Below, in pieces: positions 21-61,928 of a DNA stretch of 64,000 nucleotides. The position numbers were made by a program, and so were the translations under genes. Each line of letters begins with the position of its first letter. The first letter of the stretch is position 1. The DNA lies in the NCBI GenBank assembly GCA_951406725.2, contig OX597830.1, positions 3,348,001 through 3,412,000 on the forward strand. Reading direction: 5' to 3'. The notes beneath the pieces were generated by a model. The model searched no databases, was not told the origin of the DNA, and saw nothing but the letters and a program-made list of their open reading frames with translations. The DNA is from Octopus vulgaris (lineage: Eukaryota).

Positions 21-56
21 CAGTACCGGTTTCAGTCAGTGAGATTTTTTCAACTG
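21..56 (-). ncRNA. Minimal type-I hammerhead ribozyme motif (U3-A8 core variant) downstream of the Neptune-like ORF
   Basis: Minus strand reads cag-TTGAAAA-aatc-tcact-gact-GAAA-CCGG-TA-ctg: 3-bp stem I, stem II with one mismatch, palindromic ACCGGT stem III/loop, GUA cleavage triplet. Confidence 0.6.
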
Positions 57-445
57 TAATATTTATTAATATTTATATAAATATTTATATAAATAATTAA
101 ATTTAGAAAAATTAGAAGAAAAGTATTTTTTTAAAAAAGAATATTTGTATAGTGTTCAAATACAAGTGGCATTCTCCTTGTTTCTGCCTGTCTCTATCTC
201 TCTTGTTTACTCTTGTGGGTTCGAGGTCCTTGTGAATTCTTTGTAGGGAAGAAGAAGAAAAAACAGGAAAGAGGAGAAGGGGAATAAGAAGGAGAAGAAT
301 TTGGGAGTGTCATGATAGTAGCATTTTGAATGGTCAGTGGATGGTAGCAGTCCCTGTTCAATTCATGAAAATATTTCTTTAGAATGTTTTGTTTTATAGA
401 ATTTGCGTAGGTGTTATTCTAAAGAGCATTAGTGATTAAGTTAGG

Positions 446-527
446 AAGAAGAAGAAGAAGAAGAAGAAGAAGAAGAAGAAGAAGAAGGAGAAGAAGAAGA
501 AGAAGAAGAAGAGGACGAAGAAGAAAG
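446..527. repeat. (GAA)n microsatellite
   Basis: Read directly from the sequence. Confidence 0.95.
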
Positions 528-572
528 AATCTCTTGAGTGTATCATCTTTAATATTTGCGTGTGTATTTGTG

Positions 573-3250
573 TTATTCTAAGGCCGAGGTGGATATGTCG
601 TTTGTCGTAGACGCGTTCAGAAGGGGCCTGTATTTTGTAATAAAGAGAGTTTTTTTACTAATTCGTTGGCTCCAGGTTGTATCGTCCCTGAAATGGTAGA
701 GGGGAGAAATTCTGAAGCTTGGTGTATTGTTGTTGGCACAAATGTCGATGTGTTGGATGAATGCTATTTTTCTGTTTTGGAGAATTTTTATCTGGGATCT
801 GTGCAGGGCCATTCTTTAAGGTAAACTATTTTTTGTTTGGCCTATATATTGCTCTTGACACCCAGAGCAGGTTAGTGTGTATATCAGATTCTCCGAAGCA
901 CATGTGAAGTTGCTTTTCACTGTGAAACGTTGTCCCTGTTTGAAGGAGAACTCTGATCCCTCAATTAGATAATCGCATATCCCACAATTGGGTCCTCCAT
1001 ATTTTTTTACTGACGGCTTCTGTGTTGTTGAGCGTATTTGGGCTTGTGTTAAGAGACTTTTCATAGATTTGGGCTGTCTCTTACTTTTTATGATGGTGTG
1101 TGTTTGGAGGATTAAGTTCATTCTGTGGTCCTTTTTTTAGCAGGGGTGTGTTTTGGAGGATGGTGTCGAAGGCCTCATTGTTGAGAGGGTTGTGTGTGGA
1201 GATGTATGGTAAGGCTTTTGGTTATACATTTTTCTTTAATTTGGGATGTCTGAGTTTCTGGATGTTAAGTTGAAGGGCACGTTGCATGCATATGTCAATT
1301 AGTGAAGGTGGATGGTTCCTGGTGATGAGTGAATGTATCCTTTAGTTCATGTAGTCGTGTGTCTCTGGTGTTTGCATTAGAAACTATAGTACATATCCTT
1401 TTTGCTAGATTGAAGGGGATATTCATTCTGGTGTGTTTGGGGTCGCATGAATTGAATGGAAGATATAGCTTGGAATCCGTAGGCTTGTAGTATATATCTG
1501 TTTCTATTACGTTATTAGATTTCTTAATGAGAATGTCGAGGAAGGGGAGTTGTTGCTGGCTATATTCCATCGTGAATTGGATGTTTACGTCAAGTCCATT
1601 TAAAAGTGCTTGGAATTCTTTAAGTTTCTCTATATTTTCATGCCAAAGAATGAAAAAGTCATCTAGGTATCTCTTCCAGTTGTTTTCTATGTTGAGGGAG
1701 AAAGCGCTACCGTATCTTTCTAGAACCTTACGATAGAGACTGATTTCTAGATATCCCATGACTAGGTTAGCAAAGGAGGGGCCATTTGCGTACCCATCGC
1801 AGTCCCCGATTTTTGTCGGTAGAAGTTGTCTTTGAAGGCGAAGTAGTTATTTTCCAGGATGAATTTTAGACCTTCTATCACAAATTCTTTTTTGATGCGA
1901 TGTGGGAGTTCGTTGGCGTGATTCTCTAGCCAGAATTGAATTGCCTCTATTCCTAGGTTGTGAGGGATATTGGAATAGAGGTTGACTACATCGAAGGATA
2001 CTAGTAGGGTGTTTTTGTTTATAGTATTAGGCAGGTGATTGAGCATATCCAGGTCGTCCCCTATATAGCTTTTGACATGTTTGAGGAGTGGTTTTAAGAG
2101 GGTATCTAAAAAGTTACTGAGGAGGTGGGTTTCGCATGCGGGACCTGTTATTATAGGTCTCAATGTGAGGTCATTAGGAGTAGGGACTTTAATTATTTTG
2201 TCCGTGGCTATCTTGCATGCGTTACTTATTTTCTCACTTTTGTGTATATTGGGAATACCGTAGAATTGGCTGGTTTTACTTGTGAAATTGGTCATATAGT
2301 CATATTCTTTGTCGATGAGCCCTTCTTTGTATGGGTTTAACATTGATTTTAGTTCTCTCTTTATTTTTTGCTGACTGTAGTTTTGGGCCTTTTCTTAATA
2401 TGTTGTGTCTTCCAACATGGATAGTACTAAAGTTATAAAGTATACTGTGTCCATTAAGACAATTGCACTCCCTTTATCGGCCTCTTTGATTGTTGTTTTG
2501 TCATTTTTTAATTTGTTCAGCTCAGCCCATTCTTTTTTGCTGGAGTTTGGTTTGTGTTTTTGTTTGTGCATATGTTGATATGGGTAATTCGAGATGTGTT
2601 CACAGAAATGATCAAGTGTTTTGTTCTTACCTTTTTTTTTGGGGGGGGGGGTGTAGTTACTCCTATTTCTGACCAACGATTCGTACTCGTTGTATTTGTC
2701 GTATAGCTCCTCAGTACGTCGTAATTTTCTACAGAATTCTGCGATGTCTTCTTTCATTTCATTGTAGTTGGGGTGTTGCGGGGTGGGTGTAAACTTGAGT
2801 CCTTTGGAGAGTATATTGATTTGGTTTGCTGTTAGTTCCTTGTGAATTAGATTGATAATTTTGATCACTTTTGGTTCCTCCTGCTTGTTTGGTGCTATCT
2901 TGTGTCTCTGTGTTTGCGTATTGGGTCTAAAAAATGATTGCGGTGGTTGGGATGGAAGCTATTATGTAGTTGTTCCTTGTTGTTGCGGGGTGCCCTGTTG
3001 TAATTTATGGTGTGTGTTCTTGGAACAGTATCGAAAAATGTGTCCTGATATCCCATATTCGGGTGTGGCGTTTTAGAGGGCCGTCGTTGGTAATTATTGC
3101 GTGTGTTGCGGGTTTGTTGTGCATGGTTGTTTGGCAGGTTGTTGGAACGAAAATTTCGTTGGTAACTCTTTTTTTGTGAGGGGAGGTTGCAGCATCTATC
3201 CTGTGGGTAGTGATTTATCCTTTCTCTGTTTGAAGTTAGGGTACTCCCGA
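573..3250 (-). mobile_element. Decayed Penelope-like retroelement (Neptune-like), frameshifted RT + GIY-YIG ORF, 5' end buried in a microsatellite
   Basis: Consecutive minus-strand ORF pieces: 2395-2868 (LSKGLKFTPTP, KEADKGSAIVLMD); 1762-2343 (RPII, LVSFDVVNLYSNIPH, YRQKSGTAMGTQMAP); 1295-1759 (WKRYLDD, LPFLDI, DIYYKPTD); 816-1121 (Zn-finger-like GPNCGICDY, NFTCASENLIYTLTCSGC..YIGQT); 573-812 (HR.QI...FI..Y.P.LN). Clade is assigned from the Cys linker by recall. Confidence 0.92.
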
Positions 3251-3254
3251 TATT

Positions 3255-3367
3255 ATATACACACACACACATACATACATACATACATACATACATACAT
3301 ACATACATACATACATACACACATATATGTATATGTTTGTGTGCGATTGTGTGTGTGTGTGTATACA

Positions 3368-3432
<65 letters not shown>
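3255..3432. repeat. Compound (CA)n/(TACA)n/(TG)n/(TA)n microsatellite; one of many such tracts (e.g. 10375-10470, 27565-27652, 29107-29300, 44600-44840, 49170-49350, 55295-55460, 55595-55700, 56600-56835)
   Basis: Read directly; these tracts explain the YIYI/HTHT/CVCV pseudo-ORFs. Confidence 0.95.
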
Positions 3433-3434
<2 letters not shown>

Positions 3435-4317
3435 CTGAAATGCGTTTTTACTGCTTGGATCGCTTTCAATGCCACTACATCCCGTCCGATTCGCTCCAAA
3501 ATTTACAGGGACATGTAGAATGAGGTGACGATGCCCGTGGGCTACCTTAGAAATCCCAATCTTAAAAGGTGTGGTTGTTAGGGGCCATCTTCCTCACTCA
3601 CGCTATTTCCTTCATTACCCTCTCACTCCCCTTCAAATATAACTTTGAAAACTCCACTACCGTTATTTAAAGTATCTGTCTTCCTAAAATCAATCTCGCT
3701 ATTTCCTCTCTTTTTCACTCACTCTGTTCCCTACCTTCCCATCACTTCGGCGTTCTTTTATGTATCTGTCTGTCACCAACAACACACGAGCATGAGAACA
3801 AATATTATGAATCAGATATTCTTGCGTTCATTTATGTGTGTGTGTGTGTGTGTGTGTGTTCTATATATAAATCATCATCATCATCATCATCATCGATTAA
3901 CGTCCGTTTTTCGCGCTGTGTGTGTATGTGTTCTATATATAAATATGTATATATAATGTATGTGTGTGTGTTCTATATATATAAATATGTATATATAATG
4001 TATATATACAAAGTGTATTTATCTGTATTTATGTATATTAAACTTTTTCATACTTTTTCATAGATATATATATTTTTAAACAAATTATAAATATAATTTA
4101 ATAAATTTTATTTTCAATTTAAACAATTTAAATTTTTCAATTTTATATTTTATATATTTTCTATATTATATTTTTTTTAATGTTTTTGTTTTTGGTTTTT
4201 CACTGTTTGATTTGCCTATTAGTGGTTTTATCTCTAATTTAGTTTATACAGATATATATCTCATTTGTATACATTTGTATATATAATGCGTGCACACACG
4301 CACACACACACACACAC

Positions 4318-4334
<17 letters not shown>

Positions 4335-4352
<18 letters not shown>

Positions 4353-5552
4353 ATGTGTGCATTACGTAGTCGGTCGATTCAGCTGAAAATATGCACACCT
4401 ATGTTAAAAGTGCTGGCAAGTTTGCATGACAACTACTTTTTTTCCTCAAATGAAAGGCGTCACCTCTTGGACAAAATTCCTCATCTTATAAAATGTGGCC
4501 CCAGTAGACCCGAATGAAATCGGGTTATGTGAAAAGGGGTGAAAAGATGTGAAAAGGGGTCTAAATGGGGCTCAAAGAAGATTAAAATTTAGAGGAGCGG
4601 GTGTTTAGGAATTCTCTGTTACATCAAGCTAAAAAATTTGCGCCAGCCTTTTAATCATCAATGTGTTGCCGTCCATGATAAAGAAGTTTTGAATGCTTGC
4701 CATGGCGAGTCTACTGTCGTGAGAAAGAATCACTTCAAACTTGGTGTTTACGAATTTTCTTTTACATCAAGTTAAACATTTTACGCCAGCCGTTAAACTG
4801 TCAATACGTTGCTGTCCGTCGTTAAGAAATGCCAGCCATGGTGACTCTACTATCCTCAGATTCTATCCCTTCAAACTTTGGTTTCCAATATTTTATTATT
4901 TTTATTCAGCTCGCAAGTTCGTCTGTCCCTTTTAAATGTTAGCGTTTTGCTGTCTGCCTTAAAGCAGACCTTTCCGTTGCCACTGCCTGATATTTATGAT
5001 TGATCTTTCTAAATATTTTATTTCTCAACTTACTCAAGATCTTCTGTTGCTTATAAATGGGAGAGAGATAGATAAAGATAGAGAGTAAGAGAAAGCGAGG
5101 GAGAGTCCGAGAGAAAAGAAAAGTAAGAGAGTGGGAAAGTGAGAGAGAAAGGAGAGAGAAACAAAGAGGGAGAATCATCATCATCATCATCGTTTAACGT
5201 CCGTTTTCCGTGCTAGCACGGGTTGGACAGTGTGACCGGGGTCTGGGAAGCCAGGAGGCTGCACCAGGTTCCAGTCTGATCTGGCAGTGTTTCTACAGGT
5301 GGATGACCTTCCTAACGCCAACCACTCTGTGAGTGTAGTGGGTGCTTTTTTCGTGCCGCCGGCACAGGTGCCAGGGGGGTTCGCAGCGGCAACGATCGAT
5401 TGGTACTTTTTACGTGCCACCGGCACAGAAGCCAGTCAAGGCGGCGCTGCAATCGGCCACGTTCGGTTGGTGCTTTTTACGTGCTGAAAGGAAGCAACAG
5501 AAAGTAACAACCACACTCTTACCCGCGCGTAGAGCGGGTCACCTTGACCTAG
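4335..5552 (+). mobile_element. Non-autonomous Helitron-like element with a nested RTE tail
   Basis: Canonical 3' end: hairpin ACCCGC-gcgtaga-GCGGGT (5521-5539), then CTAG|T (5549-5553). 5' part starts in (TA)n and is CpG-rich, with a diverged ~140-bp internal tandem duplication (4600-4742 / 4743-4878). The 5' boundary is uncertain; 3434-3830 may be a further 5' segment. Confidence 0.55.
5175..5485 (-). mobile_element. RTE-type LINE 3' UTR/tail fragment ending in (GAT)n
   Basis: Same tail as 34275-35132, where it is joined to an RTE ORF C-terminus (..CCAACCC.TGCTAGCA.GGAAA.CGGACGTTAAACGATGATG). Confidence 0.8.
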
Positions 5553-5634
5553 TATATATATAAAACAGAAAAAGACAAGAAGTGCTTATGCAGAAAGGTA
5601 GTTATAGAGAACTCTACTGTGTACTAAACTTAAA

Positions 5635-6124
5635 TACGAGTGTGGGTCAAAAAGTAATGCCATTTTGTTTAGGATAGGTATAATTACCAACACAGGAACG
5701 AGTATCATACTTCTCAACAAAGCCACCGTTTCTCTCAATAGCAATGTTCCACCTTTGAGGGCATGTATGCTTGCCCCGTAAAATTCTGTTGACTGTTCTT
5801 TGAGCCACTTCTTCATCACTGGAATAATGTTTGCCTCTCAAACCCTCTTTCATGGGGCTGAAGAGATGATAGTCCAGTGACAAGGAAGTGAAAACTGTAG
5901 TGAAGAAGTGGCTCATAGAACAGTCAACAGAATTTTATGGGGCAGGGATACATGGTCTCATTCGAAGGTAGAACATTGCTATTGAGAGAAGCGGTGACTA
6001 TGTTGAGAAGTAGGGATGTGATCCACAGAAGACCAGCTTCATTTTGATGTATGATACATGTTCCTGTGTTGGTAATTATACCCGTCCTAAACAAAATGGC
6101 ATTACTTTTTGACTCAGCCTAGTA
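5635..6124. mobile_element. Fold-back mariner derivative made of two 3' ends in inverted orientation
   Basis: Both halves encode the mariner C-terminus (KKWL.EQSTEFYGA.IH..; DYHLFSPMKEGLRGKHYSSDEE; NIAIER.GDYVEK). Ends TACGAGTGTGGGTCAAAAAGTAATGCC and GGCATTACTTTTTGACTCAGCCTAGTA are inverted repeats bounded by TA. Confidence 0.85.
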
Positions 6125-6139
6125 GTGTATTTACAAGAG

Positions 6140-6500
6140 ATTTGATGCATGGCAAGTTGTATGATTGTTGTGCAGTGTGGAATGTTAGTGAAACATGTAA
6201 GTGATGGGGAATGAAATGACCATGTTCTACATTTCATGTGTAATGTTGGTAGGGAAGTGGGGTGGAGCACAAATGAGCCCTGAGAAAAATTAGTACAGGA
6301 GGAATGAGATGTAATGTGTAAGAAAGGAGACTGTACTGATGCAGACATATGATGTTGCTTATGGAGGATGGCATTTTTGTATAGAAATGCTATGCAACCC
6401 AAGTGGAAGAATTATGCAGAAGCAGAAAATATGGAAGAATTGGTGAAGCTGAAAATGAAATTCACTAAAAGATGAAAAAGAATGGTAATAAGTGGTGAGA
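6140..6500 (+). mobile_element. Highly decayed RTE ORF C-terminal remnant
   Basis: Broken translation resembles the RTE C-terminus (GKLY.., MCNV, STNE..EKL, ERRL). Similar remnants lie on the minus strand near 30640-30860, 40100-40310 and 46260-46600. Confidence 0.45.
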
Positions 6501-8599
6501 CATTTGGCTAGAGAACATTCTTCAGACCAAAATTGGTGACACATTCTATTAGAGAAGATGATTCCAACCAAAAGTAGGGAGATATACGGCTAGAAATAAG
6601 AATTACATCAAATGTATGAGTGAGAGACATTTCTAACGAAAAATGGTGAAGCAATGCACTAAGTCAACATCATTTTTCTCTTTCTAAAATCTACAAAACA
6701 AGTAGCAGACACACTCCTAGAATCAATCTAATCCACTAAAACCCTTGAAGTCATGGCTCCAGCATGGTCCCAGTCCATTTCCTGAAACAACAATATATAA
6801 AAGACTAAAGTCTATCAGCCCATGCTGGTGCTGTCCAAGATTGTTAAAATGTTGCTGAAATATTTAGTAAATAACAACTTAAAAGAAAATTCCATTAGTT
6901 TGAAATGTAAATCTAAAACTGATGTTTAAAGGATAAACTTTGTAATTTGTCATTGCCAACTTTATTATTATTATTGTTGTTGTTGTTGTTGTTGTTTCAG
7001 TTCACATTTTTAATGGCACACAGTGTAAATTTACTTGCCATATTGTGTGCAGTTAAATAATAATAAATTTACAATCGAAAACACTCGATATTTATGTTGT
7101 CTAAATTTTAGCATCATTTTTACTGGTTTTGTTCCTTATTTCCTATCTTAGATTAAAGTTCAATAACATATTCTGAAAGTTTATTTGATAGAGATATGAT
7201 TTGTTTAAACAACTTCATACTAACATTTATCAATCTCTTCAGAACAACATTTCGCTTCTCAGAATCTCGACTCCATTTAATTGTTTTTCTTTTCTTTGGC
7301 AACACACCATTTCTTCAAATCTTCAAACTAAAACACAGCAATAGAAATAAAATTTTAAAAGTATACATAGGACTTCATAAATTATGTACATACATAATGG
7401 ACTACTTTCAGAATGTATTTATGCATATTAAAAATATCTACTCCGAAAAGGACATTTCTTGATTTTTCAATTTTGCTTTTTAGTTTGTCTTTTCCTGAGT
7501 GCATTCCATTTGATAAGTTATAGCTGTCAGAAGTTTGGTTTTCACTCCAACTTTTTATACCCTATCAATCAGATTGTCATCTCAACTTCAGTATTGCCTG
7601 ATTTATAAACATCAAAATAAGTCAAGGAAGTGTTTAAATATGAACTTCACCTTAACTGCAGTAGTTTTATGTTTTTCGCTCCTGACACCTTTTGAATAGA
7701 AACATTTTAATCACTTGCACTGCTTCAAGAATTACTTCAAATGAAGCAAGAACAGGAATCTCTAGTCGTATCTTATTCACTCATGGAAACTTGGAAATTT
7801 AAATTTAGCAGCGTGTATCTGTTTGGTTACTTTTAGAATTTACTGAATAACTAATGAAGAGAATATCTCTGACACGGATGACAGAATGAGAATAATTAAA
7901 GCCCCATGGATTTAATAAAGGATTGGATTCAAAATTCCAAGAATGTTACCAAATATGACAGGTGCCTATAAAAAGGCTGGAGGGTATAATGGTAGAATTC
8001 TGTAACAAACATGAAGAGACTCATCAGAATGTATTGATGTATAATAAAAAATAAAATACAGAATGTTCGAAAAGCATGATATCATCAAAAAAAAAAACTT
8101 ATGCCTTGTCTGTGCTTACTTAACTGGTTGGAATATCTTTGAAGTAAACTTTATATTTATAAACTGAAAATATAAAATATTAATGCTGGATTTTAAAAAA
8201 ACCAGTGTTTGATATTTTAAAACTATTTAAATGTTATAATTATTGCCAGTAAACACACAATCACACATACACACACACACACACACACTCACACACACAC
8301 ACAACACATATATACACACTTTCTCTCTCTTCATTTACCTCTCTATCTATGTTATCTTCTTTTTTCTTTATTTGATTATTGTCTTTTCATTATCTTCTCA
8401 ACAAAACAAGTCAAAAGCCACACCAGTGCCTCCTGTGTTTAGAGTGGACAAAGAATGACTCACTCACAACAAATACTGTTTCACATAAATACAATTTCAT
8501 ATCCAAATTCTTACTAAGAAGTGCTTTTGATGTTTGGTAATAGTTTCTAATTCTTGGGGATGCTTAAACATCATGTTTTGCCAAAATCATCACCGTGCT

Positions 8600-8840
8600 T
8601 ATCATCATCATCATCATCATCATTATCGTCGTCATCATCATTTAATGTCCATCTTCCATGCTGGCATGGGTTGGACAGTTTGACTGAATCTGAAGATTCA
8701 GAGGTTTGCATCATGCTTCAACGTCTGCTTTGGCATAGTCTCTGCAACTTAATGCCTTTCCTAATGACAGCCACTTTCCAAAGAATGGATGGGATGCTTT
8801 TTGCTTTTTACGGCATCTGTACTCATGGGGGTACCATGTA
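8600..8840 (-). mobile_element. Diverged RTE 3' tail (another at ~11160-11330)
   Basis: (CAT)n followed by TTAATGTCC..TTCCATGCTGGCATGGGTTGGACAG. Confidence 0.7.
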
Positions 8841-9065
8841 AACATGCAAGGCTTGGAGATGGAAGGCAAAAGAATTGAAGAAGGGGTCATAACAGGACAA
8901 GACTCTTGCTGTGCGGGAGCTGAAGGGCTATTAGGATTAAAGAGGAGTGGGTGAGAGTACCCAGGGTGGAGAGGGAAAGAGATAAATTAGTAATGATTTA
9001 TGCAAGCAGTTAAATGATGATGATGATGACAAAGATGGTGATAGTGATGACGATGTATACAGGTA

Positions 9066-9293
9066 AGGCGGTGAGCTGGAAGAAACGTTAGCATGCCAGG
9101 CGAAATGTGTAGTCGTATTTCGTCTGCCATTACGTTCTGAGTTCAAACTCTGATGAGGTCGACTTTCATCCTTTCGGGGTCGATTAAATAAGTACCAGTT
9201 ATGCACTGGGGTCGATGTAATCGATTTAATCCGTTTGTCTGTCCTTGTTTGTCCTCTCTGTGTTTAGCCGCTTGTGGGGAGTAAAGAAATAGG
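9066..9293 (+). mobile_element. tRNA-like SINE, family 1
   Basis: Head GGCGGTGAGCTGG.AGAA.CGTTAGC, B-box-like GAGTTCAAA, core GAGGTCGACTT..CATCCTTTCGGGGTCGAT.AAATAAGTACCAG; multiple copies in the window. Confidence 0.8.
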
Positions 9294-9814
9294 TGTAGAC
9301 GGGTGATTGAGCTAGACATAGCAAAGTGATACAGATTTAGTTATAACGGTTCATTAAAACCTCAGCACACCACTTCACAGGATGACAGGATTGATCAGGT
9401 ACCTTAGCATAGAGCTGACGGTGAGGTAAACAACACTGAAGGCATCAAATGGTGGTTGGTTACCACTTGATATGCAAATACCAAATTCAATTTAAACCAT
9501 AAATCCAATGACTTTGGGATTGGTCTTGGTGTGGTGCAGATATAAAAAGTAAACAGAAATGGTATTTAAGATTTACAACAATTCTTTCAGTGGAATTTTA
9601 TTAATACATTCGTAGAAGACTACATCAATACATAATATTAACCATCCGACTAATGCTGGATTTTTCCAGATCAGAGTAAGAAATCTCTCCTGTCTGGAAT
9701 CTTACCTGATAATAATGATGGATTCTATGCTATCATGTAATCTTCTATAAGTGAATTAATATAATCCTAACAAAACAACTGTCATAAATTTTAAATGCCA
9801 TTTCATTAGGTGAG

Positions 9815-10070
9815 TACAAGTAAGAATTAGAGCAATTAAATACAGGTAAGAATTAGAATAATTAAATACAGGTAAGAATTAGAATATTTAAATACAGGTA
9901 AGAATTAAAATAATTAAATACAGGTAAGAGTTAGAATAATTAAATACAGGTAAGAGTTAGAATAATTAAATACAGGTAAGAGTTAGAATAATTAAATACA
10001 GGTAAGAATTAAAATAATTAAATACAGGTAAGAGTTAGAATAATTAAATACAGGTAAGAATTAGAACAAT
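9815..10070. repeat. 26-bp minisatellite, ~10 copies (TACAGGTAAGAATTAGAATAATTAAA)
   Basis: Units start at 9815, 9841, 9867 ... 10049. Confidence 0.95.
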
Positions 10071-10373
10071 GAGACCCTCTCAAGTACATTGTGCCAGATT
10101 ACTTTGCTGACTCAAATTTGTTTGGATGTGGAGTCTACAGATGGTGGTGCCAAAGGTGCAGTGAGTGTTCCCATGTGTGATGTTCATGACTTGTTGTGTA
10201 TTCATTCAGCCACATGTGAATAACTGGAAAACAAATCCATGTTTACTTCAGTAAGTACGTATTTGTCATTATAAAGGTTTTTACTCAGTCACTACCTAGG
10301 TGCTTTCATTATTCAAAGACCTGATTCTCTTGAATCCTGGAAATTTTACACATACATATATGTATATACTCAC

Positions 10374-10470
<97 letters not shown>

Positions 10471-22690: not shown

Positions 22691-23481
22691 AAAGAAGATT
22701 GTATGTATAAATACACAATACATTGCTTGATACACATTTGAAATTGGTTTTGTTCCATTGGTCCTTTCAACTAACAATCTTTTCAATAACCAGTTATATG
22801 AAATTAAAATCAAAATTACAATTTAAAATCATATTATTCAAAGTTGAAGAAAACCTTAAATCAAAAATTAGCTTTAATAGAAAGGAAAAAACCTGTTATA
22901 CCCAGGGGAAATTAATTAATGGTAAAATAAATTAACATTTATGCCCGTTTATAATAAAAATATTCAAAGAACCAACATCATAAAAATGCATATACATTTA
23001 TTTATACACATACCAAAAGACCTATATATACATATATACACTAAACATACAAATGTTAGTAACATGCCTACACACGTATACAAACAAATACAAGCAAAAT
23101 ATGTATACTGATGTATATATAAGTATCTACGTACATATGTATATACATAATGGGCCTTTGTGTGTATTTCTAAATGCACAATTTAGTTGTTGCAAGTTAG
23201 AAGAAGTAAATCAGAAAAATAATAAGTGGTGGGAGAAAAAAAAAGAAGGAAAAGAAGTGATGGGAGAAAGAAAAAAAAAGAAAGGAAAATAGAAAAAAGA
23301 GAAAGAACAGATTGATAGATAGATAGAGAGGGAGAGAAATGATTTGGGAGGTGGCACTCCCAAACAGTATCAAATGCATGCATATAAAAATGCACAAAAA
23401 TAAAACATGCATATCTACATAAATACATATATATATACAATAGTATACATACATGTAGACATCCATACAAATATACAAATA

Positions 23482-23512
<31 letters not shown>

Positions 23513-24970
23513 CTACATACATATATTCACATCAAGATAGATATATAAACCATAACATATATATGCATACAAATATATTAAAAAACTGGTGCATTGAATA
23601 TTTAAACAAGAAAATTGATATTATATAATTAAGTGTAACGTAAATTTGAAAAATTTAAATTTGAAAAAATATAAATTTAAAATTTAAATATGAAAATGAG
23701 TAAAAATGAGAAAAAAAACTTAAATTTAAATTTGCAAAACAGTCGAAGGCTTTCTTAAAATGTCGAATGTAAAATATGAAGGCAAAATATGTTCCAGCAT
23801 TTTAATGCTAAAAGATGTCTATATGTTAGGTGTAAAAATTAAATTGAAATGAGAAAGTTGAAAATCTTCGAAAGTCAAAAAATTACCTATACGGTATTTT
23901 TTCAGTCGACATTTTAAACCTTGTAGCATGCCTGCAGGAATTTAAGAGCTCTCATCTTTGGTTCAATGCCTGATTTCCCTGGAACAGGATGAAAAGTTTC
24001 TCAGAGAGGCACAATTTGCATCTTATTGATCACCTCCATGTTTATATGGTGCTGCTTTCTTCAAAATTGTCCAGCTGATATTGAAAGGATGGGCATTATT
24101 TTCCTTCAATAGCCAGACATGTTTTGCAAGACTTGTTGCTGTCCTATTTTCAGGGTATCAAAAAGAATTTCAGTGAGAATAAAACCTGGTCTTGAAGGAA
24201 GTGTCTGAAGCTGCTGTGTATGTTTTGTATTCTTGTGAGCCATCTATCTGTACTTTAGCGCTATAAACTATTCCTTTCTCAAAACATTTCCCTCTTAATG
24301 GACAGCAAGTCTGATCTCTGAAATGTGACACTGTGGTTCCTTCTAAGGATTTTTGTATTGTGCTGATTAATAAAAAAGGTGAAGTTTTTGCAACAAGAAT
24401 AGCTAACCTACAATGTTCTCCTACTAAAAATTCTATAGTTTTAAGAATTCTCTACCTAAATTTGATTTTACAGCAATGTCAGATGCCAGGTTCAACGACT
24501 TAACTTTCCTAGTTCTAGTTCTGTGTTCTATTATTGCTAAAAGTAGTTTGACTATGCTGGATCTTCTCTGAGAATCCGCTGTTCCTTAATGTATTATTAT
24601 AATATGGCAAGGCATTTTGAAATGCTGTCTCGTCTGCAGATATGCATTTATTTACCTTTCTCATTTTCTTCTTCTATTTCTTCTTCTTTTTCCTTTTCTA
24701 ACTTGCAACAACTAAGTCGTACATTTAGAAATACACACTGAGGCTCTTTATGTGTGTATATATATATGTACATAGATACCTATATATACATTAGTATATA
24801 TATATTAATCCACTTTTTGTGTATCCAATTTTTGTGTATCTAGTACTCGCTTCTTCTTTTAGAGGCCTTTTAATGTACTTATATATGAATAACATATAGC
24901 CTAATGGCTAATTTGTCTTTTGTGCTAGATCACCGGTAATAATAATTTATTTTATTACCCTTTTTACTAT

Positions 24971-25452: not shown

Positions 25453-25795
25453 AGGTGCTTTGGTAAATATATGTAAATATATTCTTATGATGCTGTTTCT
25501 ATGTATATTTTTATTATAAACGGGCATAAATGTTAATTTATTTTACCATTAATTAATTTCCCCTGGGTATAACAGGTTTTTTCCTTTCTATTAAAGCTAA
25601 TTTTTGATTTAAGGTTTTCTTCAACTTTGAATAATATGATTTTAAATTGTAATTTTAATTTTAATTTCATATAACTGGTTATTGAAAAGATTGTTAGTTG
25701 AAAGGACCAATGGAAAAAAAACAATTTCAAATGTGTATCTATCAATGTATTGTATATTTATACATACAATCTTCTTTTTTGTTCCATTCTCAACC

Positions 25796-25841
25796 AAAAC
25801 TGTCCGACAAATGGGAACGAGAAACTCTGAGTAACAGTTTT
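25796..25841 (+). ncRNA. Decayed type-I hammerhead motif
   Basis: AAAACTGT-CCGACAA-atgggaacga-GAAA-CTCTGAG-TA-ACAGTTTT: perfect 8-bp stem I, ACTC/GAGT stem III, GUA triplet; 5' core and stem II mutated. Confidence 0.6.
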
Positions 25842-26084
25842 TGTGATAATTTTGCAGTTTTATCAATATAGCATATTACTCTACCTCCAGTATTCAATTA
25901 ACTATTTTTTTCCACATTCTTTCATATTTAGGTGCTTACTATGCTATGTATGTATCTATATATATATGTAAAAGAGCGTAGGCTCAAAATGTAAAAGACT
26001 TTTTCTATTCCTGAACGTTATACTAATACATCTGTTTGTTTTGTACACCACCTATCTTCGTCTTTTGTTTTTTGTGAATTCTCC

Positions 26085-27656: not shown

Positions 27657-28274
27657 TAAATATTTGTTGTGCAAGATTTTTTATGTGAAGTCCTGTGTTG
27701 AAACAGATATTGTTGTATTTCGGAATGGTCATTTTGCCAGTTTAGCCAATAAAAACACATGCACTATATATTTGGTGTTACTTTGCTTCAGTGTTATTTA
27801 TTTTTTACATTAATCTTAATCATATTTCGACCAGAGTTCTTTCGTCACACTCCTGTGACCGCATCAGTGGTCCTTTGTTTTCTTCTCACTTATTTGTGTC
27901 TCTCCTTACTAACCGTCAGCCATTTTGTATTTCTATTGTATGTCTTCATTTGCGCATGCTTATATCTCTATGTGCGTTTATGTTTATTTAGTGTGTGTAT
28001 GTGGGGGATGCCTGTAATATTTGTATCTTCTGTTTATATATGTTCATGTAATTTGTAATTTTACATGTTCATGTAATTTGTATTTTGTATTTTGTTTTTT
28101 GTTTTTGTTTTTGTTGTTTTTGTTTATTCTTATTTTGTTCATGTGTTTACATCCACCCATTATTATCATTACATATGCTTGTATGTATGTATGTATGTAT
28201 AACAACAATACTAGTAATAATAATAATAAATTGAATCGAAAAAAAATAAAATATATATATATATATACATATAT

Positions 28275-28329: not shown

Positions 28330-29104
28330 GTTATTTATTTATTTATCTGTGTATTTATTATGTTTTCAGGATCCTCTATCGTCATATGTTGTGGTGTGTG
28401 TTAGTGCTCCATTCTAGTTTTCTATTTAGGCTAGGTTTATTTTCTATTATGTGTGTAGCTTCTGTAATTTGTCTAATTGTTGCATCTGATCTATGTGTGG
28501 ATAATATTTTAATTTCTATGTTATTGATTGATCCCCCGTGTTCCTGTTCGGCGTGTTGGTACAGAATCGATGAGCTTTTACCTTCTTTGAGTTGTCTCCA
28601 ATGCTCATTTACCCGCTCTCCTATGCTTCTTGCCGTTTCCCCTATGTATGTCATTGTCTTGTTACTGCATCGTCCCTCTATACATCTTATACTATAGACT
28701 ACATTTCTGGCTTTACAGTTTGTTTGTGGGCTAAATCTACATACAGTACAGTACCTATCTGTACAGGGGGTTCTACTAAAAGGATAGGTTCTACCAATTA
28801 TAGATTTGATAAGGTTGCCTGGCTTTTCAACAACCTTAATTCTTAGCTTAAGTTTGTCTAGGGTCCTTCTAAAGCGATACGCCAGTTCAGCTCCAGGGGT
28901 GGTGTCAAAATGGCTGATGGTTAGTAAGGAGAGACACAAATAAGTGAGAAGAAAACAAAGGACCACTGATGCGGTCACAGGAGTGTGACGAAATAAGATT
29001 AAGATTAATGTAAAAAATAAATAACACTGAAACAAAGTAACACCAAATATATAGTGCGTGTGTTTTTATTGGCTAAACTGGCAAATGACCAGTCCGAAAT
29101 ACAG

Positions 29105-29110
<6 letters not shown>
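27653..29110 (-). mobile_element. 5'-truncated Naiad-like PLE: inverted pLTR + GIY-YIG C-terminus + pLTR + tail, between (TA)n tracts
   Basis: Uninterrupted frame 28382-28905: TTPGAELA, IKVVEKPG, CTDRYCTVC, NCKARNVVYSIRC, YIGETARSIGERVNEH, RQITEA, LNRKLEW. 27707-27927 and 28906-29110 are inverted copies; extra tail 27653-27706. Confidence 0.9.
27829..27872 (-). ncRNA. Minimal type-I hammerhead motif in the Naiad-like pLTR
   Basis: gacca-CTGATGCG-gtcac-aggagt-gtgac-GAAA-gaac-TC-tggtc: 5-bp stems I and II, CUC triplet, C at position 9. Confidence 0.75.
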
Positions 29111-34270: not shown

Positions 34271-34274
34271 GTAG

Positions 34275-35132
34275 TCATCATCATCATCATCATCGTTTAA
34301 CGTCCGCTTTCCATGCTAGCATGGGTTGGACGATTTGACTGAGTACTGGCGAACCAGATGGCTGCACCAAGCTCCAAACTTGACCTGGCAGAGTTTCTAC
34401 AGCTGGATGCCCTTCCTAACGCCAGCTACTCCAAGAGTGTGGTGGGTGCTTTTACGTGCCACTGGCACGAGGGCCAGTCAGGTGGTGCTGGCAACAGCCA
34501 CACTATGTGCTTCCTGCACCGGAGCCAGTCCAGCCGCACTGGCAATAACCTTGCTCAAATGTTTTTTCACGTGCCACAAACACAAGTGCCAGTAAGGCGA
34601 CGCTGGTAATGATCATACTTGAATGGTGCTTTTTACATGCCACCGGCACAGAAGCCAATTTGTTGCTCTGGCAACGATCACGCTTGGATGGTGCTCTTAA
34701 CGCTCCACTAGCATGGATGCCAGTCATCGAATTTGATTTCGATTTCAATTTCACTTGCCTCAAGAGGTCTTCACAAGCAGAGTTTAGTGTCCAATGAAGG
34801 AAAGGTACGCATAAGTGGGCTGGTTACACCCCTGGCATAGACCATGAGGTTATGGTCACACTTGAGAAGACCCAGCAAGTCAAGTGAGACCATAACCTCA
34901 TGGCCTATGCCAGGGGTGTAACCAGCCCATTTATGCGTACCTTTCCTTCATTGGACACTAAACTCTGCTTGCAAAGACCTGTTGAGGCAACTGAAATTGA
35001 CTTGCTGGGTCTTCTCAAGTGCAGCATATTTCCAAAGGTCTCGGCCACTAGTCATTGCCTTGATGAGGACTAATGTTCGAAGGTCATGCTTCACCACTTC
35101 ATCCCAGGTCTTTCTGAGTCTACCTCTTCCAT
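34275..35132 (-). mobile_element. 5'-truncated RTE LINE (ORF C-terminus + 3' UTR) with an internal inverted duplication
   Basis: GRGRLRKTWDEVVKHDLRTL.L..AMTSGRDLWKYA is the RTE/BovB-type C-terminus; (GAT)n tail at 34275-34295. Confidence 0.88.
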
Positions 35133-49268: not shown

Positions 49269-49314
<46 letters not shown>

Positions 49315-51499: not shown

Positions 51500-51504
51500 A
51501 AAAC

Positions 51505-51559
<55 letters not shown>

Positions 51560-54591: not shown

Positions 54592-54631
<40 letters not shown>

Positions 54632-54656
54632 TAGGCATTAGTATTATTACTATTTA

Positions 54657-54765
54657 AGGCAGCAAACTGACAGAGTCATTAGCACCCTGGGTAAAATGCT
54701 TTGTGGTATTTCATCTGTCACTACATTCTGAGTTCAAATTCCACTGAGGTCGACTTTGCTGTTCA
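54657..54765 (+). mobile_element. 5' half of SINE family 1, interrupted by a LINE fragment
   Basis: SINE head up to GAGGTCGACTTTGC..TTCATC, then an abrupt switch to LINE coding sequence. Confidence 0.7.
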
Positions 54766-55292
54766 TCAAGAAGATTCACAAAGAAGATCGTCTCTTTGCA
54801 ACAGCTCAGCTACTGGGAAAGGTTGAAACAGCTAAGACTCTACTCCCTGGAGAGAAGACAGGAGAGGTATGCAGTAATATATGTCTGGAAGATCCTGGAA
54901 GGAATTGTGCCAAATTTTGGCATTGTAAGCTACACCAATGCTAGAACGGGATGACACTGCATAGTGCCAAAGATCCCAGCAATGCCATCACGCTTCAGGA
55001 CCAGCTTCTGTAACAGCCTGGGTTTCAAGGGCCCACGGCTTTTCAATATTCTCCCAAAGAGTCTGAGGAACTTGCACAAAGTAGATGTAGCAGTTTTTAA
55101 ATCAAAGCTGGACATCTTCCTGTCAAGAGTCCCAGATGAACCTACCTCGCGGCAAGAGGTGCAAATGAGAGTAGCTATATCAAACTCCATTCTTCACCAA
55201 GTGCCACATATTAGACGAAGTTCTTCGTAATAACAGTGTAGCACAAAACGGCGGTGCATCAGCATGGCCGCAGCTCTGAGCTGAAACTAGAA
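54766..55292 (+). mobile_element. 5'-truncated non-LTR LINE, RT C-terminus and short 3' UTR (clade not assigned)
   Basis: RFTKKIVSLQQLSYWERLKQLRLYSLERRQERYAVIYVWKILEGIVPNFG...GPRLFNILPKSLRN...FKSKLDIFLSRVPDEP...NSILHQ. Confidence 0.85.
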
Positions 55293-55363
55293 AAAATATA
55301 TATATATAAATGTATATATATATGATATATGTATGTATATATATATATATGTGTGTGTATATA

Positions 55364-55422
<59 letters not shown>

Positions 55423-55611
55423 GAATATATATATATATGTGTATATATGTATATATATGTTAATTGTTATCGCCATATTAATATGGCATTCTTATAGATA
55501 TAAGAATAATCGCTGCCATGGTCAGCTCCATGAGGCCACAGCCATCAAGATAGCTATTCATACACGATCTGTATCCATTATAACCTTCGAACATATGTAT
55601 ATATGCATATA

Positions 55612-55698
<87 letters not shown>

Positions 55699-55845
55699 GC
55701 ATATATGGGTACAGGACATCAAAAGAACGTTGATCACAATGAGAAACGAAAACATAAAAACAAAAACATAGAAACGAGACATGCAACACACGGAATATTC
55801 CTCTTCTTCAGTTGTCTCTTTTTTTTATCTACTTCGTGTTTCGAA

Positions 55846-55906
<61 letters not shown>

Positions 55907-57080
55907 TTTGAATTTTGATGTTGATGATGTTTTAGTTCAGTAGTATATCTTTCTAGAATTTCCATGAGAATTCTATGACCAGCTTCACCAGTTAACCTTT
56001 TAGACTTTTTTTATCAATTTATTTTTCTCCTTTGTTCTTGTTTTGAAAAGAAACCTAACTTCAAGCAACTTTTTACAGATCAGTTTTTAGACACAGTCTT
56101 CTAAACCAGGCAATGTATGGAGGGGGTTGAAAGTTTGAGTTTGCACGCCACAAAAATTTTAAGGGGTGCAAACGCACCTCCTACAACCCCTGTTCCTGGG
56201 CCCTTGGTTGAAATATTAGTTATTGCGCAGCCACCAGGGAGAAAGGTTTTTGGCTGGGTCTGGAACAAGCTTTGCTCAGTTGTGCTAAATAATCTATCAT
56301 AATGAGGACAATACAGAGTTATCTACCCTATGTAATTAGTGAAAAATTAATTATTCACAAATGATTATGATAAGAATTTTGTTTCCCCTAATACTGAAGT
56401 ATTTTGCTTTTTGATATTAACAAAAAAAAAAAATAAATAAAATAGGGCACCATTTTTCTTCCTCAAGAGATTAAAATATTTTATTGTTGTCAGGTTCCAG
56501 ACTGGCTGTTTACAAATATCAATTATTCAAGACAAAAAAAAACTAGTTTTTGCACACTTTTAATATGATAATTGTTTCAAGGTATATTTAAACAATTATC
56601 ATGTGTGTGTGTGTGTGTGTTTGTATGTATATATATTTGTATGTATATATACACATATATAATATATATATACAAATATATATATTCATATACACATGTT
56701 TGTATGTATATATATATATATATACATACATATGTGTGTATATATACACACACACATGTATGTGTATATATATATACATACATGTGTGTGTATATATATG
56801 CACACACATGTATGTGTATATATATATATATATACATTTATCTACATATATTGCATAAGCTACATATATATCTATTTACATACATACACAAGTTTATTAT
56901 GTTTTTATTTCTCCTTTGTCAGTTGTTATGTTTCAATGTTGCAGTCCAAAGTTCGTCAGTTTCGCTATGACTGATTCAGCCATTAAGATATTACCTTTTA
57001 GCATTGTCTCAAGGCCAGTCATTTGGTAGTGGAAGGGATGCAGTAGACAACTGAATCGGTCATAGTACATGACTGGTACT

Positions 57081-57240
57081 CACTAGCAGAGATACAGGGT
57101 GAGGGCAGTCCATCCCAGGCAGCACTTTTAAAGGGGCCACACTTTGGGGCCTGTTGTAGGCAATATGTGATTTTTGTGGTGTGTGGGCGTGAGAAACAGA
57201 AGTGCTGCCCCGGGTGGCACACACTCTTGCTACACTAGTG
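57081..57240. mobile_element. hAT-type MITE nested in a SINE
   Basis: Ends CACTAG...CTAGTG; exact 8-bp TSD CTGGTACT at 57073-57080 and 57241-57248. Confidence 0.85.
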
Positions 57241-57415
57241 CTGGTACTGCTTTTTATCAAGCACAGAATGATAAAAGGCAGAGATGACCTCAGTTGGATT
57301 TGAACTGAGAACACAAAGAGCTGGACTATATGCCATGAGATGTTTTTGCTAGTGCTCTAATGATGTTACCAATTCACCACTCTGTTTAAACATTGAAATA
57401 ATAATAATAATAATC

Positions 57416-57454
<39 letters not shown>

Positions 57455-57643
57455 GTTCAGCCCCATTACATGGTACCTTGGTCAGGTTGAACATCCACTA
57501 AAGCTTCAGGCTGACCAAAGCTTTGTCAGTGGATTTGGTCCATAGAAACTGAAAGAAGTCCATTGTGTGTGTGTGTGTGTGTGTATGTGCTTGTGTGTGT
57601 CTATCTGTTTTCCCTTGTCTTGTTATCATGCAATGATTGTAAA

Positions 57644-57939
57644 CAATGGTGGACTGGGTCTCAAAATATTGGTTGCCAGTAGACTAAGGGGTGGAGCCTA
57701 CCTGCAACTACAAGGGGTCCCACCCACAACTACAATACTATCATTTAATTTTTTCTTTTTGCTAGAGTATTCCTTTCAACTGTCTACAAACGCAGCCAGG
57801 CTGAAATAATTAATGCATTCTTCCAGGATTGAATAAGAAATTCTCAAACTTGAAGGGATGGGCCCCCATATATGGATTCTAATGGCACAGAGGCCCACAT
57901 GCCATCAGGCAAGCTGACAACCTGGCCAGTTCACCACTG
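57644..57939. mobile_element. hAT-type MITE
   Basis: TIRs CAATGGTGGACTGG / CCAGTTCACCACTG; 8-bp TSD ATTGTAAA / ATTATAAA. Confidence 0.75.
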
Positions 57940-60194
57940 ATTATAAACAGGCATTGCCCTCATGCAAGTTATGGGGTTGGTTTCCAGGTATCTGGCCATA
58001 GAAAAACTGCCTCAGCATTTTGCATCTGACCTGTGCAACATTTAGAAAAGTGGATGTTAAATACTGACAATGATGGTGACATTGATGATGGCAATGGTGG
58101 TGATGATGGTGGTGATAGAATCAGTAGAGTAGCAATCCTAAAAAGTCATATGGCACCAAATTAGTTCCTGAGTTCAAATCCTGCTTATGTTACCTTTTTG
58201 TTTCATTCCTCCAAGGTTAAAGGGAAAAGAAATGACAATCACAAAATAAACTGGGATATTTTCTACTCTAGTCACAAAGCCTGAACTTTTGGGGAAGGGG
58301 CCAGTCGATTAGATCAAACCCAGTACACAACTGGAAACTTAATTTATCGACCCCAAAAGAATGAAAGGTAAAGTTGACCTTGGTGAAATTTGAACTCAGA
58401 AGGTAAAGACAGACGGAATACTGCTAAACATTTCACCTGGCATGCTAACAATTCTGCCAGCTCTGACTGCATTTCTTGAGAATGGTACCACTGTTGGTTC
58501 ATACTTGAAGAACTGAAACAAATAAAAAGAAAAGATCTTAAGAATTGTCAGTAGCAAATATTTTGAGTGTGTGACTTTGTAAGTTTGAAATATTATGAAG
58601 AATATTGCTTTCCTTTTCCTGACTGACCACAGAAATCAGTTGTAAATTAAATGAAATTAGGTGTGAGAAATTAGAGTTATAATTTTCCTTGAAAAATGGA
58701 ATTGAGAAAAGAGACTTTAGTTTTCATTTTTGTAAATTATTTTCATCTTTTTCTGTAATCTTTTGTATAGTTAATTTGATGTGAATTTTTGATAGGAGGC
58801 AAAGAAGTTTTTGTATTCTTTGCTCACATCAACTGAGCTTCAAAGATTGATTGACATCTGCATTGAATTAACAGGTCTGAAATTACTTTTTACAATTGTC
58901 TGACAGAGAATAATTTTCTCGCAAATTTGTCGAATTTTGATTCCACATTCAACGAGAGTAAGTAACTAGAAAGGTATTGAGAAGGCAATATTACCTTCTG
59001 GATCAATTAATGTCGGTTTTGCATAACCTCTTCTTCAAAATTACACAATATCTTTCACTGAACACTCATCTGGAAGAAAAAGTTTGTTTTAAAATAGGAA
59101 ATTGATTACTTAAAATCAGAAAATAAATGTCTTAGGAATATTGAAAGTGATAGAATTTGAAGAGAATATCTGCAGTCTTTTCATTTAGTTTGAATTTAAA
59201 ATTTTGAAATGATATCCTAAGAGTCCAATTAAAATCCATTCTACACAGATTAAAAGTTTACACCTATCATCACAGAACAAAAATTGATTTCCTCTATATT
59301 CCAATCTAGTGAAAGTGATATTAATAATAGTTTTTAAAAATGACAGTATAATAACATTAAAATTCGCAAAATCTGTCAGTAGTTTTAGATTTTTCAAATA
59401 GAAAGGAAATAAAATTATGCTTATTTTCCATTAGTAGTTAAGAACATAAATGAATACTTTAAAGTTATTGCCATCTAATCACTTTGCATGTGCTGAGAAA
59501 TAATTATAAAATCTTTCTATATTTCATAATTATCCAAATGAAAAACTAATATTATTATCAATGCAAATTTTACTACTCATTATGGAAAGAGTTTTGTGTT
59601 TTCTTTTCCTTTCAACTCTTAAAAATACAATTCTGTGTGTTATTGAAGAATGTTCTGTAGTGCAATATTTCTTTAAAATAGTGCTTTAAATTTTAATCAC
59701 TCTTATTATCCCTCAAAGATTTCGATTCCATTATTAATTTCAAAGTAAATTAAGGAACCACAAACCTAATTCATTGACAATGGAACAGGGAAAACTTCAC
59801 TAAAATTTATTTCCTTCTCATTTTTACTTCACAGCAGAAATTTCAATAATTTATCTTTTTTATTCAAGGAAATTGTTTTAAACATTTAAATGTGATTTTA
59901 CTGTGATTTTGGTTTCTTATTTTTGTGCTAAACACAAAACAGTTTAAATCAAACATATTGGTAATATTTCGCATAAAATTAAGGCAGCAAGCTGGCAGAA
60001 TCATTAGCAAAAATGCTGCATTTCAACTGTCCTTTTGTTCTGGGTTCAAATTCTGCCAAGGTTGGCTTTGACTTTTATCTTTCCAGGTTCAATAAAATAA
60101 GTACCAGTTAATTACTGGGGTTGATGTAATTGACTTAATCCCTGCCCTGAAATTGCTGGTCTTGTGCTGAAATTTGAAAATAATATTTGATATC

Positions 60195-60680
60195 AAACTT
60201 GCTTTTTTAATTTGGTCTGCAGAAAGGAGCCATGCCCAATGCCTTCAAGACAAGTGAAATCAACAGAGTTGATGCTTTTCTTTGATATTGATAAGTTGAC
60301 ATCTGAAGAAAAAATATAGGAAACGGGATAGGGATTCCAGAGGGACGACATCCTGAGGAGGAAGGACTGGATGTAGGGGTTCATTGGTGGACGAATCTGA
60401 GGTGGGGTGGGGCACTCTATGAAAGAGGAGAAATGTGTGAGTTTGGAGTGCCTGGACATGACATGAGAGCCAACAACTCTGATAAGTAGAGGTCACTGTA
60501 GCAGTAGTAGTGGTAAAATAAGGAAGAGATGGGAAGCAGCAGGTATGTTCTCTTTCTAATTGGAACTTATTGGAAGGTGACTTGAGGTCATTCAGTTCAC
60601 TGACCTCCTTTTGTACAATGTGACCTGGGATGTCTAAATGTGTAACAGTACCACCTAAGATGTGAGGACAATATTCCATT
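60195..60680 (-). mobile_element. Decayed LINE (CR1/L2/Jockey group) RT C-terminus
   Basis: MEYCPHILGG..THLD...VQK.., and PYIQSFLLRMSSLWN...IFSSDVNLSISKKSIN. Confidence 0.65.
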
Positions 60681-61532
60681 GTCGGTGCAAAAGTGGGCAG
60701 CTGAATTTAGGAGATGAAGGGAGAGTCTTGAAGATGGCTCAATGTCTGGACGTCTTGCAACTGCTACTACTAAGGAAAGCATTGGCAATAAATCAAATAG
60801 CCAATGCTGTAAGCATGATCTGTGAGAAAGTTGAGAATATTCTGTGCAATGAATTCGGCATGACAAGGGTTTCTGCTCATTTGGAGTCCTGTCCTCTGAC
60901 ACCTGATCAAAAGTACATCAGGCTGATCACATCACACGAAAATCTGATATTATTTCAGGCAGAGAATGAGTGTCGGGTTAATTATTTTGACAAAGAGACA
61001 ACCCTACTCCTCTGCTCCAAAGAAGGCCAAGGCTGTTTCATATGCAGTGAAGGTGACGGCCTTGGTTTTTTGGGATAGAAAAGGCATCATGTTTATTGAC
61101 TAACTTGAAAAAGACCATCAATGGAGTGTTCTATGCCAATTGACTAAGGTAGTTAAGACGAAAGGGGTCTGGTTTCATCAGGACAATGCTCTAGCACACC
61201 AAGGTCCTTGGTTTCAAAGGCTGTTGTATGTGGCTGGTTTTAAACTGGTTGATTACTCTCCCTACCCACCTGATTTGGCCTCATCTGGGTCTCATCGATT
61301 CTCCAACTTGAATAAACTCTTGGTTTGGAACCAGTTGTGCACTGATGAGGTCACATCTACTGTTGAGGACTTTTTTCACCAACAGCATGACAGCTCCTTC
61401 ACCAATGGGATCTAAGCACCACAAGAAAGGTGTAGACTACAAGGGAGTTCTATGTTGAAGAATAAATATCATTTGGTCATACTCCATGAGAGTATCTCGG
61501 TGAGCCTATGAACTTTTCAGCTGATCCTCGTT
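60681..61532 (+). mobile_element. Decayed mariner transposase with 3' TIR
   Basis: IANAVSM..EKVENIL.NEFGMTRVSA, LTPDQK, VFWD.KG, FHQDNALAH, SPYPPDLASS; end ..ATGAACTTTTCAGCTGATCCTCGT. Confidence 0.85.
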
Positions 61533-61584
61533 AAAATACACAAAATATTTTGACAATTTATTTCATATAATTCCTATTAATATT

Positions 61585-61928
61585 CAATTGCAGCGTGGAA
61601 GGTGTTTATAAGCCATTTAAGAAACACGCAAAAGCCGTTCGATTCACTTCAACATTTAAGTTTAATTTGTCAAAATATTTTCGTCGCTTTCAGACCGTGA
61701 CCTGTTCACTGACAAAAATCCGTGATGCAGCACGGATTTTGTCAGTGAACAGGTCGCGGATTTTAGCGACGAAAATATTTTGACAAATTAAACTTAAATG
61801 TTGAAGTGAATCGAACGACTTTTGTGTGTTTCTTAAATGGCTTACAAACACCTTCCACGCTGCAATTGTTTTCGTTTCAGCACACGATCTCAGATCAAAT
61901 TACTTGCTATGCTAGTACATCTCCGTAA
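61585..61928. mobile_element. Fold-back non-autonomous element (284-bp palindrome + 60-nt tail) with 16-bp TSD; probably PLE-derived
   Basis: Palindrome 61585-61868 centred at 61727/61728; TSD CTATTAATATTCAATT at 61574-61589 and 61929-61944; hammerhead-like motif in each arm. Confidence 0.8.
61738..61787 (+). ncRNA. Minimal type-I hammerhead motif with G3-C8 core (mirror copy 61666-61716, minus strand)
   Basis: tttgtca-GTGAACAG-gtcgc-ggatttta-gcgac-GAAA-ATAT-TT-tgacaaa: 7-bp stem I, 5-bp stem II, palindromic AATATT, UUU triplet. Confidence 0.65.

Follow-up and report, generated by a model that had tools for sequence, protein, structure and literature searches.

The stretch of DNA considered here (the window) comprises 64,000 nt of contig OX597830.1 from the Octopus vulgaris assembly GCA_951406725.2 (positions 3,348,001 to 3,412,000, forward strand), part of a microsatellite-rich animal genome of 2.8 Gb. 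It holds four hammerhead-like motifs associated with Penelope-like elements (PLEs), which had been singled out in a first-pass annotation and are all present:

21..56, minus strand: locus 1, minimal type I hammerhead motif of family F1, core UUGAAAA (U3-A8) at 53-47
25796..25841, plus strand: locus 2, hammerhead motif of family F2, core CCGACAA at 25804-25810
27829..27872, minus strand: locus 3, hammerhead motif of family F3, core CUGAUGC (C3-G8) at 27867-27861
61738..61787, plus strand: locus 4, hammerhead motif of family F4, core GUGAACA (G3-C8) at 61745-61751

All four copies depart from the canonical core (CUGANGA/GAAA/UH), loci 1 and 4 at positions 3 and 8, locus 3 at position 9, and locus 2 at positions 4 and 8. 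We report that the 3-8 pair is a trait of whole repeat families and not a mutation of single copies, and that all four Watson-Crick 3-8 pairs (C-G, U-A, G-C, and A-U) occur as family majorities.

Hammerhead motifs and their repeat families

The locus-1 motif (predicted cut between 24 and 23) has the helix III palindrome ACCGGU at 30-25 and a stem II that lacks one pair (position 45) of the family's GUC/GAC. At locus 2 (predicted cut between 25833 and 25834) a short stem II with a GNRA loop, one pair of which has decayed in this copy, accompanies a helix III of the form ACUC-N-GAGU, whose central base is variable. The locus-3 motif (predicted cut between 27834 and 27833) carries an extra G ahead of a 6-bp stem II and the helix III AGAACU, palindromic at its outer two pairs only, and that of locus 4 (predicted cut between 61780 and 61781) combines a 7-bp stem I, an extra G, a 5-bp stem II, and the palindromic helix III AAUAUU.

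Taken alone, the window offers weak evidence. It gave 5 matches to a loose hammerhead descriptor where 20 shuffles averaged 3.0, which is not above chance, and among the four loci only 3 and 4 passed; a stricter descriptor, tuned only after the motifs had been seen, gave 3 matches where 40 shuffles averaged 0.225. It is therefore the repeat families behind the motifs that carry the case, each with approximately 1,200 to 10,000 exact-pattern matches. Chance matches to a short, degenerate motif would account for the loose-descriptor counts, but not for the fixed place of the motifs in PLE pseudo-long terminal repeats (pseudo-LTRs), the covariation described below, or the family-level controls, in which one representative copy per family was matched by 0-3 of 2000 shuffles. 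Position and covariation rule this explanation out for F1, F3, F4, and a further family, F6, and overall we give it a vanishingly small probability.

Core forms were tallied in the first 100 matches listed for each family's pattern. The F1 pattern, searched with any base allowed at positions 3 and 8, had 1,201 matches, and the tally held U3-A8 in 95, a mismatch in 5, and C3-G8 in 0. Within the flanks of F4, G3-C8 had 7,924 exact matches against 3 for C3-G8 (one F4 arm, one F3 relative, and one unrelated sequence); at positions 3 and 8 of F4, DNA runs carrying the labels of three other organisms showed no variant above 10%, and a single partial contig came from the one marine RNA run examined. 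Position 9 of F3 (4,527 matches) was C in 84, A in 12, and U in 4, making A9C a family-level core change. F2 (9,979 matches) was counted by hand as CUGAUGA 45, CCGACGA 21, CCGAUGA 19, CCGACAA 3, and other forms 12. Since C3-A8 accounts for only 3 of these 100, the mismatch at locus 2 is copy-specific, in agreement with the first-pass description of that motif as decayed, and CpG decay is its likely cause; the subfamily form of the window copy is CCGACGA, and U4C marks real F2 subfamilies. Neither A9C nor U4C had been pointed out in the first-pass annotation, and sister subfamilies with a canonical core occur for both F2 and F3. Another abundant short repeat (L098, L168, L224, L258, and others) has a hammerhead motif in U4 and C4 forms with an ACGU palindrome, a second case of U4C.

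A scan of 324 loci showed further families. F6, another PLE family with 885 matches, has A3-U8 in 94 of its first 100. F5, which is related to F1, also carries U3-A8, has different stems, and includes 781-aa open frames. A Watson-Crick 3-8 pair is the majority in F1, F2, F3, F4, and F6, the locus-2 copy itself being without one. The different Watson-Crick pairs claimed for three of the loci (C-G, U-A, and G-C) are thus family majorities, and the diversified repertoire proposed from them is wider than was claimed, with A3-U8 as a fourth pair. Reversion of the family consensuses to CTGANGA, which had been raised as a possibility, was seen in F2, whose commonest form is canonical, whereas the variants hold in F1 and F4, and in F3 at A9C.

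Two side observations concern other small motifs. F6 (L230/L172, L325-L354) combines A3-U8 with a 2-bp stem II and a four-base loop, and is among the smallest hammerhead-like motifs here. More U3-type minimal motifs with a palindromic helix III occur in other repeat families (L109:1901+, L118:3062+, L170:26+, L121:227+, and L225 minus), one of them being U3-G8.

PLE context and the F4 element

The window also holds the following features:

816..2958, minus strand: broken PLE open reading frame (ORF) with reverse transcriptase (RT), Zn-finger linker, and GIY-YIG endonuclease
22691..24400, minus strand: locus-2 PLE, whose 3' pseudo-LTR ends before the hammerhead, with a decayed endonuclease remnant and a CxCx5C linker
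25464..25970, plus strand: inverted pseudo-LTR of the locus-2 PLE, 95% complementary to 22691-23004 (314 nt)
28382..28900, minus strand: GIY-YIG endonuclease end of the F3 PLE (GIY-YIG E=0.0015), approximately 500 nt upstream of the locus-3 motif
28880..29107, plus strand: inverted F3 pseudo-LTR with a 15-nt deletion in the hammerhead, helix III and the cut site being gone
61104..61415, plus strand: just upstream of the F4 insertion, putative decayed Tc1/mariner-type transposase remnant, by its motifs and without Pfam support
61585..61729, minus strand: inverted short F4 arm with a second G3-C8 motif, core from 61709
61727..61928, plus strand: F4 element, PLE-type, approximately 200 nt, without an ORF, with a 55-nt tail
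9763..10122: tandem array with a 26-nt unit
34745..35000: inverted repeat, 121-nt arms with 14 nt between them, 94% complementary

The locus-1 motif lies approximately 760 nt downstream of the broken RT-endonuclease ORF on the same strand. The RVT_1 match of this ORF is weak (E=0.026), and by its motifs it would be Neptune-like. PLE endonuclease matches were found in 7 of 30 F1-like loci, the window locus counted, and Zn-finger linkers are present in the PLEs of loci 1 and 3, for which the Neptune and Nematis clades are candidates. At locus 2, the CxCx5C linker, a Hydra-clade motif in Craig et al., was seen, and the DKT motif was not seen in these decayed pieces. F3 is young, with 98-99% identity among its top 40 copies, and one copy (L220) has an open 825-aa frame. 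Overall, a GIY-YIG endonuclease lies upstream on the same strand in F1, F2, F3, F5, and F6 (11 of 30 loci in F6), but not in F4. F5 elements (L215-L217) also have a separate frame of 330-380 aa upstream of the 781-aa RT-endonuclease frame, and loss of helix III and the cut site by deletion between short direct repeats recurs in F3 and F1 copies (window 28966-28995, plus strand; L295, L314).

An endonuclease tree was built from 36 rows, with at most eight per family, duplicate loci and rows shorter than 80 aa dropped, and F4 absent for want of a protein. The 3-8 labels cluster by family (4 changes against 16.9 when shuffled), a clustering accounted for by near-copies; U3-A8 had a single origin in 0% of bootstrap trees, and the deep branches do not resolve. 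The earlier idea of a clade-specific repertoire is borne out at the level of families only.

Locus 4 also qualifies the earlier view of four independent PLE-type loci, which is borne out for the PLE context of loci 1-3, whereas locus 4 is without a PLE ORF and is homologous to the locus-3 family. The insertion stands between direct repeats of 11-16 nt (61574-61589 and 61929-61944). F4 copies share a fixed 5' end and two 3' ends approximately 55 nt apart (among 47 matches, 18 end near 140 and 26 near 200); they often carry an inverted 5' copy and are flanked by (TA)n. Aligned with the F3 pseudo-LTR, F4 is colinear over the whole distance between hammerhead and tail, with a score of 105 where shuffles give 51+/-8 (0 of 2000 reach it), and both 3' ends coincide. 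On these alignments, F4 belongs with the locus-3 family as a non-autonomous relative, and was likely mobilized by an RT/endonuclease of the F3 kind. That locus 4 might be a miniature inverted-repeat transposable element of the neighboring mariner remnant was ruled out by the one-sided tail, the two 3' ends, the flanking repeat of 11-16 nt, and the homology to F3. No head-to-tail tandem units were found in 30 position-ordered F4 loci, where copies are single or head-to-head.

The start points of F4 copies were counted in 30 loci for which the tail was the sole selection criterion. No more than 11 nt separates the start from the common 5' end in 25 of them, and in 1 the start lies within 2 nt of the predicted cut. 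Uncut RNA is thus the usual template, and most F4 copies derive from it. Two unlinked copies (L147, C8; L209, C1; 2 of 91 loci) have approximately 25-30 extra nt upstream of the common 5' end, common to both, which close with a branch-point-like sequence, then pyrimidines, and then CAG. F4 may owe its usual 5' end to a 3' splice site, comparable to that of the Penelope intron, which ends at helix I. In another F4 copy (L184, 1497-1556), the two arms differ at both core positions, C3-G8 in one and G3-C8 in the other, which may be a chance double change (one against 7,924).

Covariation, rival explanations, and a proposed mechanism

In eight F3/F4-type rows, 6 of 12 pairs are changed on both sides, and these lie in stems I and II, in helix III, and at 3-8 (the shuffle control for this count ignores relatedness). 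Given the homology of F3 and F4, the C-G of one and the G-C of the other can be counted, on these alignments, as covariation between homologs. In F6, 3 of 5 stem I pairs have changes on both sides, stem II and helix III being fixed by the search pattern and hence uninformative. The three-way junction with stems I and II is borne out by pairing and covariation, as the check on stem conservation suggested at the outset had asked, and helix III is fully palindromic in F1, F4, F5, and F6.

These data bear on the possibility that the variants are frozen accidents, in which chance or template switching gave a handful of master copies their two changes, and amplification followed with no selection for the RNA fold. 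Copies evolve neutrally once inserted, so that counts track master copies and not selection; a micro-inversion could give rise to G3, since UCACUGA read on the opposite strand is UCAGUGA; and one F4 arm, that of L184, is C3-G8. However, four variant families (F1, F5, F6, and F4) are all Watson-Crick at 3-8, no family with a 3-8 mismatch as its majority was found among the families examined, and the stems covary between subfamilies. We consider frozen accidents very unlikely.

Our preferred reading, which we hold to be probable, is that several PLE families carry minimal type I hammerhead motifs in their pseudo-LTRs, that these families have fixed different 3-8 pairs, and that the motifs likely cut themselves slowly as dimers. 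Each copy would fold its own stems I and II, and helix III, too short to close alone, would form between two copies through the palindrome, probably helped by the element's protein. Slow dimer cleavage is proposed by analogy with the minimal hammerheads of PLEs (PMC4209133), and protein help by analogy with a PLE hammerhead whose cutting needs protein (PMC11167929); in cofolding, helix III paired between copies for loci 1 and 2, and did not for loci 3 and 4. The 3-8 pair would be swappable, likely because its role is to position nucleotide 8, whose 2'-OH, and not its base, would be catalytic: the 2'-OH of G8 has been proposed as the acid (PMC6155905), and engineered C3G/G8C partially rescued a PLE hammerhead (PMC11167929), with partly rescued activity of engineered G3-C8 reported elsewhere as well (PMC8495972). 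Such swaps, together with weakening changes (A9C, U4C), are likely able to spread, since the RNA that serves for insertion is uncut and the speed of cutting would not be limiting; ribozyme mutants of a PLE insert normally in vitro (PMC11167929).

A serious rival, which we judge unlikely, is that the hammerhead fold persists for its shape, to which the PLE protein would bind or which would influence splicing or translation, with cleavage vestigial and variant cores catalytically near-dead. It would accommodate A9C in 84 of the first 100 matches of a young family, U4C subfamilies in approximately 45 of 100 F2 matches, the derivation of F4 copies from uncut RNA, and the published findings that cleavage is dispensable for in vitro insertion and that no RNA-seq ends fall at the PLE hammerhead cut (PMC11167929). 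A9U reportedly lowers activity at least 20-fold, yet is present in one working natural ribozyme (PMC10085705), and nothing on A9C was found in the literature searched. A purely structural role is harder to reconcile with the retention of G5, A6, GAAA, U16.1, and a non-G at position 17 in the families examined (G5/A6 and GAAA being set by the descriptor), and with the 3-8 pair, a tertiary pair of the active fold, being kept across at least three double changes.

Several observations weigh against the preferred reading. Self-cleavage here is predicted, from sequence. The majority F3 form has A9C and two A-A mismatches in the dimeric helix III, and the F4 sequence holds a 10-nt palindrome spanning A13-U1.1 that could mis-pair the core. 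F4 copies do not begin at the predicted cut, and across 91 loci (some of them duplicate places) and three longer stretches, F4 carried no RT-endonuclease ORF near the G3-C8 motif; an endonuclease piece lies near 1 of the 91 (L008), which also has a separate canonical hammerhead motif. The shuffles behind the pair counts take no account of relatedness, and the structures were derived from the very sequences on which they were tested. Finally, the Rfam hammerhead models gave no match at loci 1, 3, and 4, and none among the 150 of 162 window matches that were listed; these window scans returned microsatellite and hairpin noise only.

The Rfam result also bears on the suggestion that standard models under-detect these variants because of their cores. 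Under-detection is real, but canonical-core control copies were missed too (0 of 2 detected), and a variant core is thereby ruled out as its cause; the cause is the minimal architecture. Descriptors fixed to CUGANGA or UUGANAA overlook thousands of copies, and Rfam overlooks the whole minimal class whatever its core.

A bolder version of the preferred reading, somewhat unlikely in our view, would be that all four 3-8 pairs fixed in one genome, including the unreported natural G3-C8 and A3-U8, are active as slow, protein-assisted dimers, and that the most amplified lineages have weaker cores (G3-C8, A9C, U4C) because cutting destroys the template, the ribozyme serving as a tunable brake on retrotransposition and not for processing.

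Relation to known hammerheads

Earlier publications cover PLE hammerheads, how diverse they are in a single genome, and the occurrence of U3-A8 in PLEs. Lunse, Weinberg and Breaker reportedly describe short-stem-III hammerheads, which by the title are small PLE-associated variants cleaving as dimers. Natural G3-C8 or A3-U8 in PLE hammerheads was not found in the literature searched, outside which lies that survey, the largest, whose core tables could include them. Within the literature searched, G3-C8 appeared only as engineered mutants (PMC3884650, PMC8495972, PMC11167929). Natural core variants, described as rare, include U3-A8, as well as U4C, which is tolerated in a viroid; no G3-C8 or A9C was found in the text of that source (PMC3088659).

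The hammerhead is nearly universal in canonical PLEs, yet dispensable for in vitro insertion (PMC11167929). Its role could be probed directly with the natural series found in this genome, with homologous C-G and G-C motifs, sister subfamilies with A9 or C9 and U4 or C4, related U-A and A-U families, and copies that can be counted.

The closest known system is the minimal hammerhead of metazoan PLEs (PMC4209133), likewise type I and placed in pseudo-LTRs, with an extra nucleotide between 9 and 10.1, a short palindromic helix III, many families per genome, inverted pairs, and U3-A8 families (approximately 1,300 Schistosoma mansoni matches), as the first-pass annotation had stated for U3-A8. In contrast, the 56 rows of Fig. 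S3 of that work are without G3-C8, A3-U8, C4, and C9, which are family or subfamily traits here. Animal non-LTR retrozymes (bioRxiv 10.64898/2026.07.22.740005) resemble F4 in being non-autonomous, hammerhead-bearing, and of proposed origin from PLE pseudo-LTRs; they are head-to-tail tandem repeats, while F4 copies are dispersed, occur as monomers or head-to-head, and have tail ends of the PLE type together with a minimal G3-C8 motif. The PAc Poseidon hammerhead (PMC11167929) is likewise carried by a PLE, with two RT start sites giving the tail and an uncut RNA template; G3-C8 in that system is engineered and partly active, whereas here it is the natural majority form of a family with thousands of copies.

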